Shown: positions 3,644 to 11,489, counted from the first letter of the stretch. The stretch is 64,000 nucleotides of DNA from Candidatus Latescibacterota bacterium (GCA_965248435.1 OZ252100.1:2720001-2784000), one strand, 5' to 3'. Notes: a model not told the origin generated them from the letters alone. Numbers and translations are program-made.

Positions 3644-4768
3644 TCAGATCAGTCTGCCCAGTACCTCGAGAAGTCGTTCCACATCCGCGCTTCCGTTGAA
3701 CGCGTGTGTCGCGATCCGCATCCGTCCGCCATATCCATCACAAAGGACGCGCTGCTCCACCAACCTGTCTTTGAGAGACTCAGCTTCTTCGTAAATGCAA
3801 CATGTATTGCCCGAACGCGCTTCCCGCTTTTGCGGGCTGATCATGGTCAGGCCGAGTCCCTCCAGACCCGCATAGACCTGCTCTGAGAGATCCCTGGCAT
3901 GGCATTCGATCCGTTCCATGCCAATCCCCAGCAGCACCTCGAGGGACTGATCAAGGTACATCACCACCAGCTTGGCCACATTCCCCGGCTCGAGTCGCTC
4001 CGGCATCGGCTTTTCCCCGACCTCGGCCGGGCGCTCCGGCGACTGGAGCGGCCATATGTCCACATTGTGCCAGCCGAAACAGGTCGCGGCTGTCCTGGCT
4101 TCCGCCCGTTCGCTCAGGTAACAGGGGGCGACTCCGTGCGTCGCGAGCATCCACTTATAACTGCTGCTCACGGTCAAGTCGGTCACATCCGCCGGGACGG
4201 TCAACACACCTGAGGCGTGTGTGGCATCCACGGCCAGAAGCACATCGTTCAGGCCTTCCGAAAGCCGCCGCAGGTTCAGGCACTGCCCCGTGTAGAAGCT
4301 GACCTGGCTGACAGCCATCACGCGTGTTCGATGGTCCACAGCCGCGAGAAGGTCCTCTTCGTGAACGATCAGATCCTTGTGCGGCACCATTCTGACCTGC
4401 ACGCCTCGATCCTTCAGCTGTTTCCAGGCATAAACCACGGAGGGAAATTCGAGGTTGGACGTCACGACATTGTCGCCGTCCCGCCAATCCAACCCCCTTG
4501 CCAGCCAGTTCATACCTTCGGCCGCCGAGGGCATGAAGGCGACCCTCTCTGCCGGAACACCCCACAGCTCGCCCATTCGCTGCCGACATCGTGCCACACG
4601 CGCGATAAGCTTATCCCGCCCCTCCCACGAGGCACTCTTCCACTCCTTGAACGACCGATAAACCTCGTCGTGTGCCTTCAACCAGGGCCCCTCGCCGCCG
4701 GAGCCGAGATGCGTCACGCCCTCCAGTCCAACGAATTCGTCGGGTGAAATCAGGGGTTCTATGGTCAC
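3644..4768 (-). CDS. Aminotransferase class V / cysteine desulfurase-like PLP enzyme
   Basis: GDNVVTSNLEFPS, VDATHASG and SSYKWMLA (PLP lysine); C-terminal MRIATHAFN; GAGGA RBS. Confidence 0.88.
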   Translation of the reverse strand: MTIEPLISPDEFVGLEGVTHLGSGGEGPWLKAHDEVYRSFKEWKSASWEGRDKLIARVARCRQRMGELWGVPAERVAFMPSAAEGMNWLARGLDWRDGDNVVTSNLEFPSVVYAWKQLKDRGVQVRMVPHKDLIVHEEDLLAAVDHRTRVMAVSQVSFYTGQCLNLRRLSEGLNDVLLAVDATHASGVLTVPADVTDLTVSSSYKWMLATHGVAPCYLSERAEARTAATCFGWHNVDIWPLQSPERPAEVGEKPMPERLEPGNVAKLVVMYLDQSLEVLLGIGMERIECHARDLSEQVYAGLEGLGLTMISPQKREARSGNTCCIYEEAESLKDRLVEQRVLCDGYGGRMRIATHAFNGSADVERLLEVLGRLI

Positions 4769-4822
4769 GTTAGCAGCTTCCTCTCCTCATTGCTATCTGT
4801 CACGCTACCAGCTTCAAGATTC

Positions 4823-4930
4823 TGGAGTATTGCAGTACTGGAGTGTTGGAGTAATGCAAAACCTTGTCTCTCCAATACTCCATTACTCCATTACTCCATT
4901 GCTCCATTGCTCCATTGCTCCAACACTAGC
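4823..4930. repeat. Intergenic 8-bp tandem repeat in two opposed blocks
   Basis: Four TGGAGTNN-type units at 4823-4854 face six NTRCTCCA units at 4875-4922. Confidence 0.85.
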
Positions 4931-4994
4931 ACTTCGCTGCTCAATCCCTTCGATATTCGACATCCTCTGTTTTGATGAGATACATCGTGTTATT

Positions 4995-6049
4995 TCATCT
5001 ATGAAAAACGTAAAGATCCCTGTTATCCAGAGGCAGTTCCACCCACGCGCCGCCCTGTCTGTGGCTCTCAGCCACCATCAGACACGCCTCGGTGATGTGA
5101 TGTGTCGTTTCCACATCCCCCAAGGTGGGATTTCCTGACTCGTGGGCATTCAGAAGATCCTCCAGGCAGATCACCACGGTACTCTTCGCCTCCGCCGCGG
5201 GCACGTCGGCATCCACCCAGATCGCCCGTTTACCCCCCTGGTTCTCGGCCCTTCGAAGTTGCGTGTTGAACCCATTGTTCATCGACCGGACCGCCCCTTC
5301 CTCTCCGATGACTTCGAACTCCCAGGGCCCCTCCGGAACACTCCACGCCTCAACACCGTTCTCGAAAACGATATCGAAGATCGCATCCGGGTCCGCATCC
5401 AGGCGATTGTTTCTGATCGTTGGAGGTTCAGACTTGTCCCGGGAACGAAGCTCTCCCCGGACAGACACGATCTTCGGATCGTCCAGCAGGTAGGAAATCG
5501 TGTCGATCGAATGGATATGTCCGTGCAGGAGATTCGTTCGGCCGTAATGAACGGCCACCCTTGGCTTGCCGATCTTGCCCGATTCGATAACTTCCCTGAC
5601 GGCCCAGTAGCGCGGGTCGAAACGGCGCAGGACACCGGTGTTGAACAGCGTGCCGTGTTTAATACATTCGTCGCGAACGAAATCGGCCTCTATCTGGAAC
5701 AGGCCATAGCCTTTTCCAGATAGAGCATCGGGACGCCAGCACGAGCCACAGCCACGCCCATCTCCGCGTGGAGGTGTCCCCTTGTACAGACGGCCACCAT
5801 ATCAGGCTTCTCCCTCTCCATCATTTCGACATAATCTTCATAGAGTGCGCTGCTGCCCCACCTTTCACCGAAAACATCTCGTTTTTCCGAATCCGTATCC
5901 GCCCCGGCGATCAACTCAAGCCGATCGCTGAATTTACAGCATGCCGCAATGGAATAGGGTAAGGTGTTTGAAGGGGACCCCTTCAACTCGTCATCGATCG
6001 TGCTCCCCATGCGCCCAAGACCGACGATCGCGACTCGATAGCTCTTCAT
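4995..6049 (-). CDS. Gfo/Idh/MocA family oxidoreductase, frameshifted near 5692 (probable sequence error or recent pseudogene)
   Basis: 5690-6049 has the Rossmann motif VAIVGLGRMG and LEKAMACS. The adjacent frame continues IEADFVRDECIKHGTLFNTGVLRRFD into ORF 4995-5558. Inserting one T (TCC AG ATA to TCC ATG ATA) restores CSMIEAD. Confidence 0.8.
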
Positions 6050-6357
6050 AATTTCTCCCTCCTGAGAATCTCACCCTTGTTCGGAGCGAGCGAAAGCCCT
6101 CGTTTCTCCCCAGGCCCAGAGGCTGAGGGCCTGGCCTCATGCATCATAACTTATTGTATTATCGTAGATTAAATGTATCATCCGCTTCTCGGACCCGGTT
6201 GAACAACCAGCAGATAGCAACCTAACATCTGTCACGAATACAGTCAAGTCGAGGATCATCGGCTCGCGTCGTGTTGGCTTCGCGACACCAGACGCCGGGT
6301 TCCCCGTGGAAATCAATATCGTAATATAGTGGGCTCTGTTGTATCTTTAGGAGGAAC

Positions 6358-7583
6358 TTGAAAACCCACATCGCTGCAACATCGACTCAAAAAGGATGCC
6401 TTTTGGAATCTGAACCTCTGAAACAGTTCATGGAAGAAGGTTTCGTGATGGTCCCTCAGGTCATCCCGCCGGATCGGTTGGAGGATCTGCGAACACAGTA
6501 TGAAATCCTCGTCGATCGCCAGAAGGCCGTCTGGGCAAAAAATCGAAAGCCGGACGATCCCCCCGGCGGCGTGTGGGAATCCAGCAGTCTGCCCCGACTC
6601 AACATAGACAGCGTGGTCGAGCCCGACACTGCAGACACCCTGGAGTTCCTCCTTCACGAAACATCAAGAAGATGAATCGGGCACTGATGGGAACTCCGGA
6701 CATCGTCCCGCAGAGAATGTTCCTCATGTGCAACCCGGTCCAGGACCACGGTCCCAGTACTTGGCACTTCGACATCAACACGGAAGAACAACCTCCGCTC
6801 GGCAGCCTTCACAAAAACCTTGTAGCCAACGGCCCGACCACTGTCCAGTGGAACATCGCCCTTTACGACGACAGTGTCTTCTGGGTGGTCCCCGGAAGCC
6901 ACCGCAGGCCGACGACAGAAGAGGAGAACCGTTGCCTCCTGGAAAGCCTGCGGAAACCTCTACCTACGGGCAAACCGATGGAACTGAAGGCAGGAGACGG
7001 CCTCGTGTATACGAATGCCCTCAATCACTGGGGAAGCAACTACAGCTCGAAGCTCAGGCGGACCCTGCTCGTGGGGTATCGGAGTTTTGGCGGATCTTCC
7101 CTTCCGTTCAATCCCCATTACCGGTGGTGGGATCTTGATTTCACCACCCACCTGTCGCCTCGGGCTCGGAATGCGTTCAAACGGGCCCGCAAGCTCCTTG
7201 AAGACGAGGTCGATCAGATTGCCTCTGTTTACAGGGCGGTCATCGCAAAGGACGAACCTGCCTTCCGAGAGGGTCTGAACGCCCTCCACCCGGCGGAGGA
7301 CGAACAGATCGTCTCCCTGGCCCTCCTGGAAAGACTGGCGAAGAAGGTCCGATTCGATCCAACGGGGACCCGCCAGATCTGGCAGCACGAGAGGATCACC
7401 GAACGACTCACCCCTTCGGAAATCGAGACGCTTTGGCCGCGGTTCGAGGTCTTTGACGAAAAACTCCAATCCGGTAGAGTAGAGTACGCGACCGGCTTCC
7501 ACGGCGAACCTGGAGGGCTCTACCCCTATGACGTGCCTCCCGGTTATCACGTAGAGGACTTCGTCGCGGGTTGGAAGAACTGA
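6358..7583 (+). CDS. Phytanoyl-CoA dioxygenase (PhyH) family Fe/2OG enzyme, frameshifted near 6660
   Basis: QFMEEGFVMVPQVI at the N-terminus; WHFD, WNIALYDDSVFWVVPGSH and LKAGDGLVY...HWG in the second ORF. One extra A in CACGAAACATC gives LLHENIKKMNR and fuses the two ORFs. Start codon uncertain. Confidence 0.8.
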
Positions 7584-7661
7584 ACGGAGAGGCGACGATC
7601 CGTAGAGATCGTGACATCTAGACGTAAATTGCAATGATCAGACATGGTTATATACATAATT

Positions 7662-7687
7662 GGCTCCCGGATTTGGGAGCCTCTTTT
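7662..7687 (+). terminator. Probable intrinsic terminator
   Basis: GGCTCCC-ggattt-GGGAGCC followed by TCTTTT. Confidence 0.55.
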
Positions 7688-7689
7688 GC

Positions 7690-7718
7690 TTGACAACCGG
7701 AACTCGACGCACCATCAT
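7690..7718 (+). promoter_or_regulatory. Putative sigma70 promoter for the kinase/regulator operon
   Basis: TTGACA-N17-CATCAT, about 50 bp upstream of the kinase ATG. Confidence 0.45.
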
Positions 7719-7768
7719 TTCCGTATCGACCGATATCTCCGCACGACTCTTTGAAGGCAGAATTCCAC

Positions 7769-9040
7769 ATGGATGATCTCGAAAACCAGAAAAATCAGCT
7801 CTTCTCGGAGCTGGCTGACTTGCGTAGGCAACTGACCGATCTGAGGGCCGCCGTATCGGATCAGGGAACGATCGAGGAGTCGCTCAGACAGAGCGAGGAT
7901 CGCTACCGGGCAGTTACCGAAAACGCCTTCGCCGGCATCACTATCACCGATCCGGATGAAAATATCACATTCGCCAATCCGGCCGCGGTGAGGATGCTGG
8001 GCTACACAAAAGACGAACTCCTGGGTGTCAACCTCTCGAAGTTGACTGATCCGAATGAATTCTCGAGGTACCGGGAATTTACGAAACAGCGGAAAAGAGG
8101 CGTGGAGAACCAGTATGAAACGCATCTCTACAGGAAGGACGGCGAGCGGATCAGTGTCCTCGTTTCCGTCTCCCCACTCTTGGATCTCCAGGAACGTCTG
8201 GAGGGCATTCTTGCCGTGGCCGTGGACATTACGGACCACAGACGTGCCGAAGAGGAACTTCGGAAGGCGAAAGAGGCTTACACTGAAAGACTCGAAGAAA
8301 TGGTCAGGGAACGAACGCGTGAACTCGAAGAGGCCCAGACGCAGCTGATTCACTCCGAAAAGCTCGCCGCGATGGGTAAGCTGGCAGCCGGTGTGGCTCA
8401 CGAGATTAACAATCCTGCAGGAGTGCTTTTGATGAAGCTGAAGTTCCTGCTATCAACTGCGGAGGAGGCGGGAGTCCCTCAACGAGCGGTTTCGAGCCTG
8501 CAGGTCTCAGTGGATCAGGTCGAGCGCATCCAAAAGATTGTCGAAAGCCTGCTCACGTTCTCGAGACAGCCCGAAGGAATCCCGGTTCCCACGTCCATCA
8601 ACCACGCAGTCGCGACGGCACTGCGGTTGACGGAGCATACCCTGTCCTCCCGCCGCATCGAACCGGAGCTCGACCTGGACCAGAGCCTGCCCGAGGTCTG
8701 TGCGGATCCGGCCGCGCTCGAGCAGGTCGTGATCAACCTGCTCAACAATGCCTCGGATGCCATGCCTGAAGGCGGTCGTCTGAAGGTGAGGACGTGGAAC
8801 GCATCGAAAGATGGGTGGGTTTACCTGTCTGTGGAGGACGATGGCGTGGGCATCCCGTCGGACTACCTGAGCAAGGTATTCGATCCTTTCTTTACGACCA
8901 AGCAGGTGGGAGAGGGAACCGGACTGGGTCTCTCGATAAGCTATGGAATCATAGAGAAGCTCGGAGGTCGGATCGAGGTTCAGAGTACCCCGGAAGAGGG
9001 CTCAACATTTACTGTCAAGCTTCCTGTCAAGAGGGGATAG
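7769..9040 (+). CDS. PAS-domain cytoplasmic sensor histidine kinase (NtrB/AtoS-like)
   Basis: PAS domain (FANPAAVRMLGYTKDELLG...RKDGERISV), H-box LAAGVAHEINNP, N-box NLLNNASDA, DDGVGI, FDPFFTTK and GTGLGL. No TM segment. ATG 7769 preferred over TTG 7751. Confidence 0.93.
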   Translation: MDDLENQKNQLFSELADLRRQLTDLRAAVSDQGTIEESLRQSEDRYRAVTENAFAGITITDPDENITFANPAAVRMLGYTKDELLGVNLSKLTDPNEFSRYREFTKQRKRGVENQYETHLYRKDGERISVLVSVSPLLDLQERLEGILAVAVDITDHRRAEEELRKAKEAYTERLEEMVRERTRELEEAQTQLIHSEKLAAMGKLAAGVAHEINNPAGVLLMKLKFLLSTAEEAGVPQRAVSSLQVSVDQVERIQKIVESLLTFSRQPEGIPVPTSINHAVATALRLTEHTLSSRRIEPELDLDQSLPEVCADPAALEQVVINLLNNASDAMPEGGRLKVRTWNASKDGWVYLSVEDDGVGIPSDYLSKVFDPFFTTKQVGEGTGLGLSISYGIIEKLGGRIEVQSTPEEGSTFTVKLPVKRG

Positions 9041-9043
9041 ATC

Positions 9044-10426
9044 GTGGGGAAGGGACGAATTCTGGTGATCGACGACGAACCGACCATGCTCGAGGCCTGT
9101 GATGAAACCCTTTCCTACCATGGCTATGACGTCCGACTGCAGGACGTCGGCAGTGATGCAATCGAATTGGTTCGACAGGAAACCTTCGACCTTGTGCTGA
9201 TCGATCTCAAGATGCCGAACGTAGACGGGATCCAGATCCTCAAACAAATAAAGACCATCGACAAGAATGTGATGGCCGTCATGATCACCGGTTTTCCAAC
9301 GATAGCCACTGCGGTCGAGGCGGTCAGGCAGGGAGCCTACGACTACCTTCCAAAACCGTTTGCGCCCGATCAGCTCCTCATCCTCGTTGATCGCGCCCTC
9401 TCTCGCAAAAGACTGACCGAAGAGAACCTGCTGCTGCGGAAGTCTCTCGGGCACGGACCCGATTTCGAAGGAATCATCTACAAGAGTCGCGCGATGGAAC
9501 GGGTCCTGGATTTGATCGGAAAGGTGGCCGACAGCGACAGCAGTGTCATCATCCAGGGGGAAACCGGTACAGGGAAGGAGCTCGCAGCCAGGAGTCTCCA
9601 CAGGAATAGTCCACGAAAAGACCACCTATTCCTGCCCATCAACTGCGGCGCCCTGCCGGAGCATCTTCTGGAAAGTGAACTGTTCGGCCACGAACGTGGG
9701 GCATTCACCGGAGCCTACACGAGGAAGTCCGGATTGCTGGAAACCGTTCAGGGCGGGACCGTTTTTCTGGATGAAATTTCAACGCTCAGTTTGAGCCTGC
9801 AGGTGAAACTTCTGCGGGTACTCCAGGAGCGGCAGATCCGCCGCGTAGGCGGGAAGGAGGACATCGACATCGATATCCGCGTCATTTCCTCCACGAATGA
9901 AGACCTCGAAGATGCCGTCGCCCGGGAGGCCTTTAGAAAGGACCTCTACTATCGGCTCAACGTCATTACGATTACTTTGCCCCCCCTGCGTGAGCGCGTT
10001 GAAGACATCTCTCTCATCGCAGAGCACTTCCTGGATGGGCTCAACACGGTGCACAGGAAGGTCGTTGAAGGCATATCCAGGGAGGCCCTGGAGATCCTTC
10101 AGTCGTACCGCTGGCCGGGCAACGTCAGGGAACTTGAGAACATACTGGAGAGGGCGTTTCTCCTCACAGATTCAAGTGTGATCCAGGCGGCTGATCTACC
10201 GGCAACCCTGAAGCACACCGATTCCACGATCAGCGTCGACACGCGCCTTCCTTTTTCGACCGCGAAAAAGGTCTACACTGAGCCCTTCGAGCACGAGTAT
10301 CTGACCAGGCTCCTCGAGGAATCGAACGGAAACGTCACCTTAGCTGCGCGGAGAGCGGAGATGCATCGATCCTCCTTTCAACGCCTGCTCAAGAAGCACG
10401 ATATCCGATCCAGGGAATTCCGGTAA
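9044..10426 (+). CDS. Sigma54-dependent NtrC-family response regulator (REC-AAA+-HTH)
   Basis: REC domain (ILVIDDE, LIDLKMP, KPF), Walker A GETGTGKE, ESELFGHERGAFTGA, LDEI, WPGNVRELEN and Fis-type HTH. Confidence 0.95.
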   Translation: MGKGRILVIDDEPTMLEACDETLSYHGYDVRLQDVGSDAIELVRQETFDLVLIDLKMPNVDGIQILKQIKTIDKNVMAVMITGFPTIATAVEAVRQGAYDYLPKPFAPDQLLILVDRALSRKRLTEENLLLRKSLGHGPDFEGIIYKSRAMERVLDLIGKVADSDSSVIIQGETGTGKELAARSLHRNSPRKDHLFLPINCGALPEHLLESELFGHERGAFTGAYTRKSGLLETVQGGTVFLDEISTLSLSLQVKLLRVLQERQIRRVGGKEDIDIDIRVISSTNEDLEDAVAREAFRKDLYYRLNVITITLPPLRERVEDISLIAEHFLDGLNTVHRKVVEGISREALEILQSYRWPGNVRELENILERAFLLTDSSVIQAADLPATLKHTDSTISVDTRLPFSTAKKVYTEPFEHEYLTRLLEESNGNVTLAARRAEMHRSSFQRLLKKHDIRSREFR

Positions 10427-10634
10427 GTCTGAAGCATGAATGCGGCAGTGCAGCGTTTACTGAGACACCGAGATCAGCGGGCCGGAATGGAATCAACTAT
10501 TTGTAAAACAAGGATATATAGTCTTCAATCTCAAATCCTTCGATGGAGTGTCGAAAAACCGCCGCAACTTTGGAGCGATTTCCATTATTCTCTCCCACCA
10601 CGCTTTTCTGAAGAACTTCATATATATTAAATAA

Positions 10635-10689
10635 AAACAAGATGTTAAGATCTCTTGTGTGCATCTCGCATCCTGGCACAAGGCTTGCG
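10635..10689 (+). promoter_or_regulatory. Sigma54 (-24/-12) promoter with IHF-like site
   Basis: TGGCAC-AAGGC-TTGC at 10674-10688; AT-rich tract with AAACAAGATGTTA (IHF-like WATCAAN4TTR) at about 10635-10647; lies directly downstream of an NtrC-family gene. Confidence 0.8.
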
Positions 10690-10699
10690 ATTGCGTAGG

Positions 10700-10832
10700 G
10701 CCGATCAACCGTTTCGAGTGTCATAGGTCACTCGGTCAGTACCCGGCTCTGCCCAGGTGATCGAAGACTGAATTCGGTTGTCGAGTAAACAAAGGGAGAG
10801 CAGTCAGTTGTTTCGGCTGCTCTCCCTTTTTT
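10700..10832 (+). ncRNA. Candidate sigma54-dependent structured small RNA (unknown family)
   Basis: Runs from the predicted TSS (~10700) to an intrinsic terminator; no ORF; pairs by eye into a three-way junction. Confidence 0.55.
10791..10832 (+). terminator. Intrinsic terminator, probably bidirectional
   Basis: AAAGGGAGAGCAGTC-loop-GGCTGCTCTCCCTTT plus T-run; AAACAAA on the other flank could serve the convergent lipoprotein gene. Confidence 0.85.
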
Positions 10833-10889
10833 CCTGAACGCCTCGAAGGAGGCGATCAGCAAGCGGTGTCATTCGTGCACGCTACGGCC

Positions 10890-11339
10890 TCAAGGGCTGC
10901 TCCCAGCGATCTCTGTAAATCGAATGTTCAGCCCGGAAATCAATCTTTCTCCTCTGAATTCCTTGAAGACTACCTTCACCTGCACGTTCTCCTCTTTTTC
11001 GAAATCGGCGCTGTAAAAAACAACCTCATACGAACCCTCGCGAGTGATCAGCGCAAGCGCCCTCGATTGGTAAAGACCCATTTTCGACACGAGTGTGTCC
11101 CTCATGTCCAGAAAAACAGACTTGCGGATTTGGCTCTTCATATTCTCATCAAAATATCTCGAAAATTCCTCATACTCCGCTTCGTTGAATGCCTGAAGCA
11201 GGTTATCTACGACCGGATCGGCGTAGTTCAGGATCCTCTGCCCCTCCTCTCCCATCGGCTCCACCACCACTGCCCCCTCTTCCACACAGGCCGTCAGGAA
11301 ACAGCACACCCAGAGTGCTCCTCTCAAACCTCTATTCAC
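10890..11339 (-). CDS. Putative lipoprotein, DUF3887-like
   Basis: GTG 11339 with GGAGAG RBS; lipobox FLTAC; ADPVVDNLLQAFNEAEYEEFSRYFDENMKSQI...ADFEKE...ISGL resembles DUF3887 proteins. Confidence 0.65.
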   Translation of the reverse strand: MNRGLRGALWVCCFLTACVEEGAVVVEPMGEEGQRILNYADPVVDNLLQAFNEAEYEEFSRYFDENMKSQIRKSVFLDMRDTLVSKMGLYQSRALALITREGSYEVVFYSADFEKEENVQVKVVFKEFRGERLISGLNIRFTEIAGSSP

Positions 11340-11489
11340 AGGTCTCTCCGGAAGCGGTCCACATCGCCGAGGGCCCCTGCTTCTTTTGCTCTTCGAACTG
11401 AATCTGTTTGGAAATCGACGAAGTCGGACGTAATATGGGGCAAGCCACATTCAAATACGTCCATAATATAGAAAAAAAGGAGATTCTCC

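Follow-up and report, generated by a model that had tools for sequence, protein, structure and literature searches.

A predicted sigma-54-dependent non-coding RNA beside a kinase/NtrC pair in a Candidatus Latescibacterota genome, and its probable descent from the 3'UTR of a co-regulated gene

What does a sigma-54 promoter drive when no protein gene lies in front of it? This question is raised by a short intergenic stretch from a Candidatus Latescibacterota bacterium, contained in the 64-kb piece of DNA analysed here (the window), whose genome of origin (G000) is 5.67 Mb in size and 97.5% complete. Within the window, a gene for a PAS-domain histidine kinase (429 aa, the sensor; 7751-9040, plus strand; Pfam PAS_9, HisKA and HATPase_c) is followed on the same strand by a gene for an NtrC-type sigma-54 activator (9044-10426; Pfam REC, AAA+ Sigma54_activat and HTH_8), and a sigma-54 promoter core lies 248 nt beyond the stop codon of the latter. 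A preliminary description of the locus proposed that this promoter makes a small RNA, folded as a three-way junction and serving as the output of the two-component system, and advised a search behind orthologous regulators.

Sigma-54 promoters are characterised by GG at -24 and GC at -12, in the consensus TGGCAC-N5-TTGC. The core in the window, TGGCACAAGGCTTGC / TGGCACaaggcTTGC (TGGCAC-aaggc-TTGC; 10674-10688, plus strand), matches this consensus exactly, and with the GC at 10687-10688 taken as -13/-12 the usual spacing places the predicted start near 10700. The exact pattern is found once in the 64-kb window, against 0.11 expected, with at least one occurrence in 11 of 100 shuffles; in the whole genome there are 29 occurrences, against 12.9 expected from composition. 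The genome encodes rpoN (Sigma54_DBD match, 199.5 bits), and the NtrC-type protein encoded at 9044-10426 is the probable activator of the window promoter. Between the promoter and two candidate activator boxes lies an AT-rich tract (10600-10659; GC 0.20-0.23) that would be involved in DNA bending. The tract had been called IHF-like; its AT-richness is borne out, but the sole exact match to the IHF consensus is at 10491-10503, outside the tract, and one match against 0.84 expected is at chance level.

Downstream, the predicted transcript would end at an intrinsic terminator (10791-10832, plus strand), whose 15-bp stem (10791-10805/10815-10829) encloses a 9-nt loop (10806-10814) and is followed by a run of six U residues to 10832, in agreement with the strong terminator that had been placed there. 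A simple consensus terminator scan omitted it, the loop of 9 nt lying outside the 3-8 nt range of the scan. The next gene, as the preliminary description also noted, is convergent: a DUF3887 gene (10890-11450, minus strand; identified by ORF and Pfam), which lies outside the unit and bounds it. On the reverse strand, 10791-10832 reads as a stem followed by TTTGTTT, a T-rich tail, and the terminator possibly also ends the DUF3887 gene.

No plus-strand ORF of at least 40 aa exists within 10700-10832, and the frames inside the unit, as judged by eye, comprise 2-4 codons, apart from one 20-codon TTG frame that runs through the terminator. This last frame could be taken as a small protein gene hidden within the unit; besides the lack of any longer plus-strand ORF, no frame is common to the copies of the element described below, which differ by indels, and such a gene is barely conceivable. 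A 64-aa ATG ORF (10436-10630) with no Pfam match takes up most of the stretch from the NtrC gene to the promoter; it overlaps both candidate activator boxes and is probably not a gene. The claim that a promoter-to-terminator unit without an ORF stands beside its likely activator is therefore upheld by the exact core, the terminator and the lack of an ORF of at least 40 aa. The predicted non-coding unit is ~133 nt long (about 10700-10832), and its own promoter, its own terminator and its position beside an activator gene fit the layout of activator-adjacent sigma-54 small RNAs of the NrsZ, Pxr and CrcZ type.

How is the transcript folded? The minimum free energy (MFE) of a 136-nt window transcript is -57.6 kcal/mol (z -5.84; 0 of 200 shuffles as good), most of this stability being supplied by the terminator, as the hairpin alone gives a z of -1.81 (7 of 200 shuffles as good). 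The MFE structure is one long imperfect hairpin of ~87 nt (10700-10786, plus strand), supported by folds, homologues and the retention and compensation of its pairs, with an apical loop UACCCGGCU at 10740-10748 of which CCCGGCU forms 10742-10748. The three stems named in the preliminary description (P1, P2 and P3) do exist as complementary stretches and P1 is supported, but the three-way junction that they were thought to form is not the MFE structure. P2 (CGAGTG/CACTCG) is not conserved in the paralogue described below, where one of its six positions is paired, four are unpaired and one is gapped, and the junction was rejected.

The element belongs to no catalogued family among those searched. 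At the Rfam gathering threshold the window gave no match, as the check suggested in the preliminary description required for novelty, and below it the terminator drew matches from microRNA and frameshift-site models only, which scored 17-18 bits where the thresholds are 40-95; the three loci that carry other copies gave no Rfam match at E-values up to 0.5. A DNA search with a 201-nt region against 60 relatives returned only a paralogue in the same genome, all else being chance matches of 15-25 nt. This paralogue (copy B, the window RNA being copy A) is located 223 kb away, at G000:C1:2953787-2953941 (nhmmer E 3.2e-8; also found by BLAST and by the covariance model R1), and matches the whole window RNA including the terminator, with the promoter excluded. 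It begins just 3' of the stop codon of a gene whose 875-aa product combines four CHRD domains with a Por_Secre_tail domain for sorting by the type IX secretion system (T9SS); in locus L031 the stop is at 2975 and the element runs from about 2988. This CHRD gene is preceded by a perfect sigma-54 core of its own, TGGCACaaggtTTGC.

Model R1, built from the two copies in G000 and covering hairpin and terminator, was searched in 100 relatives and gave one full-length match, in G004, the remaining matches being terminator-only or short and partial. G004 and G005 represent sister genera of G000 within the same family. In G004, hairpin and terminator lie 3' of the orthologous CHRD protein gene, whose product is 60% identical to that of G000 (locus L067: gene end 10632, element 10658-10814), and the stem core GCAGUC...CGGCUGC of the terminator is common to the window, copy B and G004. 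When all 132 genomes of the class were searched with a hairpin-only model made from these three sequences, G005 was added. Here two tandem hairpins and a terminator stand behind the gene of a 360-aa T9SS-sorted protein, which has a sorting domain very similar to those of the CHRD proteins and an upstream sigma-54 core, TGGCACaaaccTTGC. In this locus (L102, minus strand) the gene ends at 393, the hairpins occupy 383-280 and 151-49, ~130 nt apart, and one terminator is shared by both; the outer stems of both hairpins are nearly identical to that of G004.

The family thus comprises five copies in 3 of the 132 class genomes. No others turned up among 151 sampled genomes of the phylum. Folded individually, each of the five forms one long hairpin that carries the conserved motif at its tip, where CCCGGCU is identical in 5 of 5 and closed by a CAG/CUG stem in 4 of 5. 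Taken alone, the hairpins of the G004 and G005 copies have z-scores of -6.4, -7.0 and -4.2, against -1.81 for copy A and -0.17 for copy B; by this folding measure the hairpin of copy A by itself is predicted to be marginally stabler than shuffles, and that of copy B is not. Judged from sequence, the RNA element appears real, uncatalogued and narrowly distributed.

Imperfect palindromes that sit after stop codons, are duplicated in one genome and occur in tandem in G005, and whose model also scores the reverse strand, if weakly, might suggest a mobile or repeated DNA element (a REP- or MITE-like palindrome, or a recombination site) and no feature at the RNA level. REP and MITE elements are defined by many dispersed copies, whereas there are two in the 5.67 Mb of G000, one in G004 and two adjacent ones in G005; moreover, the orientation is constant relative to gene and terminator, no transposase was seen nearby among the ORFs scanned, and a pattern scan of metagenome contigs gave chance matches only (14 loci, none matched by R1, and by eye high-GC sequences with no likeness to the hairpin). 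A repeat is accordingly very improbable.

Where the element lies in its other occurrences bears more directly on its role. The elements of copy B, G004 and G005 fit an RNA embedded in a 3'UTR, being placed just after a stop codon and sharing the terminator of the gene, and copy A differs from them in that it follows a promoter instead; this stand-alone form is present in G000 only, among the 132 class genomes and the phylum sample of 151. With four of the five copies at the 3' end of a protein gene, the hairpin and terminator could be a purely cis-acting module that does no more than end or stabilise transcripts, the promoter in the window being incidental. The window module would then stop read-through from the kinase/NtrC genes and from DUF3887, for which the T-rich tail on the reverse strand of the terminator (noted by eye) would be suited, and in G004 it would attenuate read-through into a same-strand gene that begins ~20 nt past the terminator. 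An 87-nt hairpin with an invariant loop would, however, be superfluous in a plain terminator, and the perfect sigma-54 promoter with its shared candidate boxes, 12 nt before the hairpin, would be left unexplained. Other CHRD orthologues also manage with a bare terminator alone: at the 3' ends of those in G005 (contig C66), G038, G054, G056, G058 and a Phaeodactylibacter MAG, only bare terminators or short, unrelated GC hairpins were found. On balance a purely cis-acting module is improbable. In the more distant family of G056 and G054 (L075, L080 and L079), one or two short GC-rich hairpins of the GGGGCGA...TCGCCCC type sit between the stop codon of the CHRD orthologue and the terminator, and are unrelated in sequence to the long hairpin.

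Is the window unit under the same control as the CHRD gene? The upstream regions of the two promoters share a 14-mer with one mismatch, an exact 12-mer (-117/-114), and the core with its spacer, the remainder having diverged. The 14-mer is the distal candidate for an activator box, TGAATGCGGCAGTG (10437-10450, plus strand), of which 13 of 14 bases match the block upstream of the CHRD promoter, and it contains the half-site TGCGGCAGT at 10441-10449, or -233 from the window promoter. The 12-mer is the proximal candidate, AACCGCCGCAAC (10557-10568, minus strand; at -113/-114 in the CHRD promoter region), whose reverse complement contains TGCGGCGGT, -116 from the window promoter. These two shared blocks are inverted copies of a half-site, TGCGSCRGT, and each promoter has one half-site per strand (-233/-116 in the window, -187/-113 for CHRD). 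Of 56 sigma-54-like sites in the genome, only the window and CHRD promoters have TGCGSCRGT within 320 nt upstream, where only its absence at the other 54 sites is a test, the motif having been derived from these two. Similarly, only these two among the 29 exact cores of the genome have an AAGGY spacer.

The comparison can be extended to the sister genera, as four related promoters from three genomes align, with a common block near -115 and a AAAAACAAG block near -42. The former is related to the proximal box and is also seen in the G004 and G005 promoters; the latter lies at 10633-10641 in the window (about -41), aligns with G004 and G005, and is degenerate in the CHRD promoter of G000. From these shared motifs we infer that one activator drives both the window unit and the CHRD gene. 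Because the syntenic kinase/NtrC pair of G004 directly precedes the CHRD operon, the adjacent NtrC is the obvious candidate, and the PAS-kinase/NtrC pair would activate the window promoter through the candidate TGCGSCRGT boxes at -233 and -116.

This synteny was detected by tblastx, by which locus L067 of G004 is the counterpart of the window, with the minus-strand flanking gene, the kinase (L067:4209-5558) and the NtrC gene in the same order and amino acid identities of 59-74% by piece (70-74% for NtrC). In G004 these are followed by a sigma-54-like core, TGGCATacgacTTGC, a single-domain response regulator, the CHRD gene, the hairpin and the terminator, whereas in the window the order is kinase, NtrC, promoter, hairpin and terminator, such that the window looks like the G004 operon minus its coding part. 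The small response regulator of G004 has no orthologue in G000, where the best match is 32%. Two further differences accompany the synteny. The G004 NtrC orthologue has a frame change in a C run (L067:6690-6720), with the C-terminal HTH part in another frame, so that either the assembly is at fault or the regulator is broken; and ~3 kb of the window between the flanking gene and the kinase (4762-7750), including a PhyH-like dioxygenase ORF at 6573-7583, is absent from G004, whose kinase comes immediately after the flanking gene.

The expectation of a conserved stand-alone RNA behind orthologous regulators is contradicted by this arrangement, as the syntenic pair of G004 precedes protein genes and the RNA is their 3'UTR. 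It follows that the window RNA is not the only output of the system. The proposal that a small RNA is the output of the two-component system survives in part: the shared activator-box motifs favour it, but not as the sole output, with the CHRD/T9SS gene as a further predicted target. More probably, the CHRD/T9SS gene is the primary output of the system, and the RNA derives from its 3' end. Two other NtrC relatives (71% identity in G006, and 68% for a second copy in G004) have no sigma-54 core or hairpin downstream. In G001, of the same genus as G000, neither the NtrC (E <= 1e-100) nor the CHRD gene nor the RNA found a match, from which the system is seen to be dispensable.

Paralogues of the NtrC with ~42% identity in the sister genus g3 (L047-L060) were also considered. 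Each has a same-strand sigma-54 core downstream (for example L051:3128-3142, ~235 nt past the stop), and in L051 TGCA-type dyads are found upstream of the core; these promoters are unrelated to that of the window, and in the example that was opened the promoter precedes an ordinary protein-coding frame.

When did the two copies in G000 separate? In a three-way alignment, A and B are 69% identical, and A and B are 48% and 56% identical to G004, respectively; as A and B are closer to one another than either is to G004, the duplication is placed in the G000 lineage. The history suggested by these comparisons begins with an ancestral layout like that of G004, of kinase, NtrC, sigma-54 promoter, (response regulator), CHRD gene, hairpin and terminator. 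The unit of promoter, gene and hairpin would then have been duplicated in the G000 lineage, after which the copy beside the regulators would have lost everything between the start region of the promoter and the hairpin. The CHRD copy in G000 carries a CCGAGC motif, noticed post hoc, in its leader and again in its 3'UTR (L031:162-167 and 2992-2997), and the coding-part deletion possibly ran between such direct repeats.

An origin by loss of the coding part, which is well supported, is equally what would be expected of an inert relic: the deletion scar of an old operon whose CHRD gene had been copied elsewhere, a scar that may still yield an inactive RNA whenever the regulator is switched on. 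The rate of change would agree with this, since, with G004 as outgroup, 20 changes fall on copy A and 10 on copy B (12 unresolved), meaning that copy A has changed about twice as much, and this could reflect relaxed constraint. The weakness of the copy A hairpin alone and the restriction of the stand-alone form to G000 in the genomes searched point in the same direction. So does natural variation in part. Three contigs of close relatives from marine samples retain the unit, the first having only 10699 G>A within 10660-10835 among the differences listed, and the second having none of its nine listed differences within 10743-10832; the listing covers all but 24 of the differences. In the third, TGGCAC has become TGGCAT, by which the consensus is still met, and an uncompensated break of a mid-stem pair weakens the hairpin from -31.3 to -24.0 kcal/mol.

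Against a relic stands the manner in which the hairpin has changed. Between the hairpins of A and B, 27 of the 88 aligned positions are different (identity over the RNA being 69-81% depending on alignment, while upstream regions retain motif islands only), yet A retains 23 of the 28 pairs found in the fold of B. On average 16.1 of these pairs survive in random mutants, of which 0.14% reach 23; in the reverse direction 24 of the 30 pairs in the fold of A are kept in B, which 0.33% of mutants reach. This pair-retention test was used in place of a neutral test on MFE only, a weak one in which 15% and 2.1% of the mutants were as stable. When the five copies were aligned under guidance of the model, 99 of the 120 cells were paired, and both sides had changed in 11 of the 24 pairs; these counts lean towards structure because three of the five rows trained the aligning model. 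A MAFFT alignment of the five hairpins had a misaligned middle, and the model-guided one was preferred. The promoter core, both candidate boxes and the loop motif of copy A are also intact, wild relatives retain the unit, and in the lineage of copy A two pairs of the terminator stem that are G-U in copy B and G004 have become G-C, the U-run being uninterrupted. An inert relic is the less likely reading, and the foremost rival of the one favoured here.

With the anatomy, homology, synteny and shared promoter motifs of the unit established, the explanation that we judge a little better than even is that the window encodes a stand-alone NtrC- and sigma-54-dependent RNA, derived from the 3'UTR of a target gene of the same regulon and made together with it, whose loop would regulate or compete. 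Under such a scheme the same kinase/NtrC signal would yield the free RNA along with the CHRD messenger, and the CCCGGCU loop would bind in trans the same partner, RNA or protein, as the hairpin at the 3' end of the CHRD messenger, so that the free RNA would act as a co-induced regulator or competitor. A more specific version can be proposed tentatively, and is rather less likely: that this is a small RNA gene soon after its birth, in which the coding deletion freed a 3'UTR hairpin that remains under the same activator and, through its loop, acts on or competes with the hairpin of the parent messenger.

If the partner were an RNA, how might it be recognised? Duplex prediction for each hairpin against the operon leaders gave z-scores of -1.65 to +1.32, with no signal. 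The loop complements GAGCCGG in the CHRD leader of G000 and GCCGGG in G004, a match seen post hoc that serves as a lead only. No match to the Pfam family of Hfq was found in G000 (97.5% complete), making the usual chaperone route unavailable, and a base-pairing RNA in this organism would work without Hfq.

The window copy is, in terms of its sequence, a credible NtrC- and sigma-54-dependent small RNA of a known kind, for which several systems offer precedents. The closest in layout is NrsZ of Pseudomonas aeruginosa, an RNA without an ORF whose sigma-54 promoter, activated by the adjacent NtrB/C pair, occupies the gap that separates ntrC from its tail-to-tail neighbour, and that acts through a conserved hairpin loop motif in duplicated stem-loop modules (PMC4253122). 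The promoter of TGGCAC-N5-TTGC type, the tail-to-tail spacer after ntrC, the lack of an ORF, the conserved loop motif and the duplicated modules all have parallels here, as far as the published description of NrsZ extends (PMC4253122). There is, however, no relation in sequence or Rfam family, and NrsZ is described as three short processed modules, in contrast to one hairpin of 87 nt. Nor is NrsZ presented in that description as derived from a messenger 3'UTR, and its expression has been shown (PMC4253122), whereas the window unit is a prediction from sequence.

In gene order, the locus resembles that of Pxr in Myxococcus xanthus, where a kinase and an NtrC-like regulator (PxrK/PxrR) are followed by a ~260-bp spacer with a predicted sigma-54 promoter and enhancer region, and then by the small RNA; Pxr itself, as described there, differs in having three stem-loops, another sequence and a host from another phylum (PMC5684412), and the window RNA has no Rfam match. 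The embedded copies find their counterpart in GlnZ, a small RNA derived from the 3'UTR of glnA, which is released by processing and requires Hfq (PMC9731577; bioRxiv 10.1101/2022.04.01.486790). Like GlnZ, the elements of copy B, G004 and G005 lie in the 3'UTR of a messenger, here predicted to be NtrC-controlled, and share its terminator; unlike that system, G000 has no Hfq that could be found, and the GlnZ abstracts name no stand-alone paralogue with its own sigma-54 promoter. In Desulfovibrio vulgaris, non-coding RNAs downstream of the sigma-54 response regulators DVU0653 and DVU0679 are listed as their regulon (PMC4641369). The likeness lies in a non-coding RNA beside a two-component sigma-54 activator, and while the non-coding RNA is the only listed target there (PMC4641369), here a protein gene would be a second.

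Small RNAs driven by sigma-54 beside two-component activators are therefore well known, through NrsZ, Pxr and others, and to these the unit adds one uncatalogued family: a conserved hairpin of ~87-100 nt with an invariant CCCGGCU loop that marks the 3' ends of genes for T9SS-sorted proteins. Less common is a descent that is legible: the parental element in a 3'UTR, an operon of the ancestral type in a sister genus and the unit without a gene that came from it can be set side by side, and their promoters still have candidate activator boxes in common. The added value of the window copy lies in this readable origin from the 3'UTR of a co-regulated gene. It has been proposed that new small RNAs can arise from 3'UTRs, and if the reading favoured here is true, the loss of a coding part that turned an operon into a small RNA gene would be a clean example of one born in this way. 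On the more specific and less likely version, the outcome would be a feed-forward or titration circuit that sets a small RNA against the 3'UTR from which it descends. With a single activator acting on two promoters, and the same hairpin borne by one messenger and one free RNA, the organism would also offer a simple experimental system.
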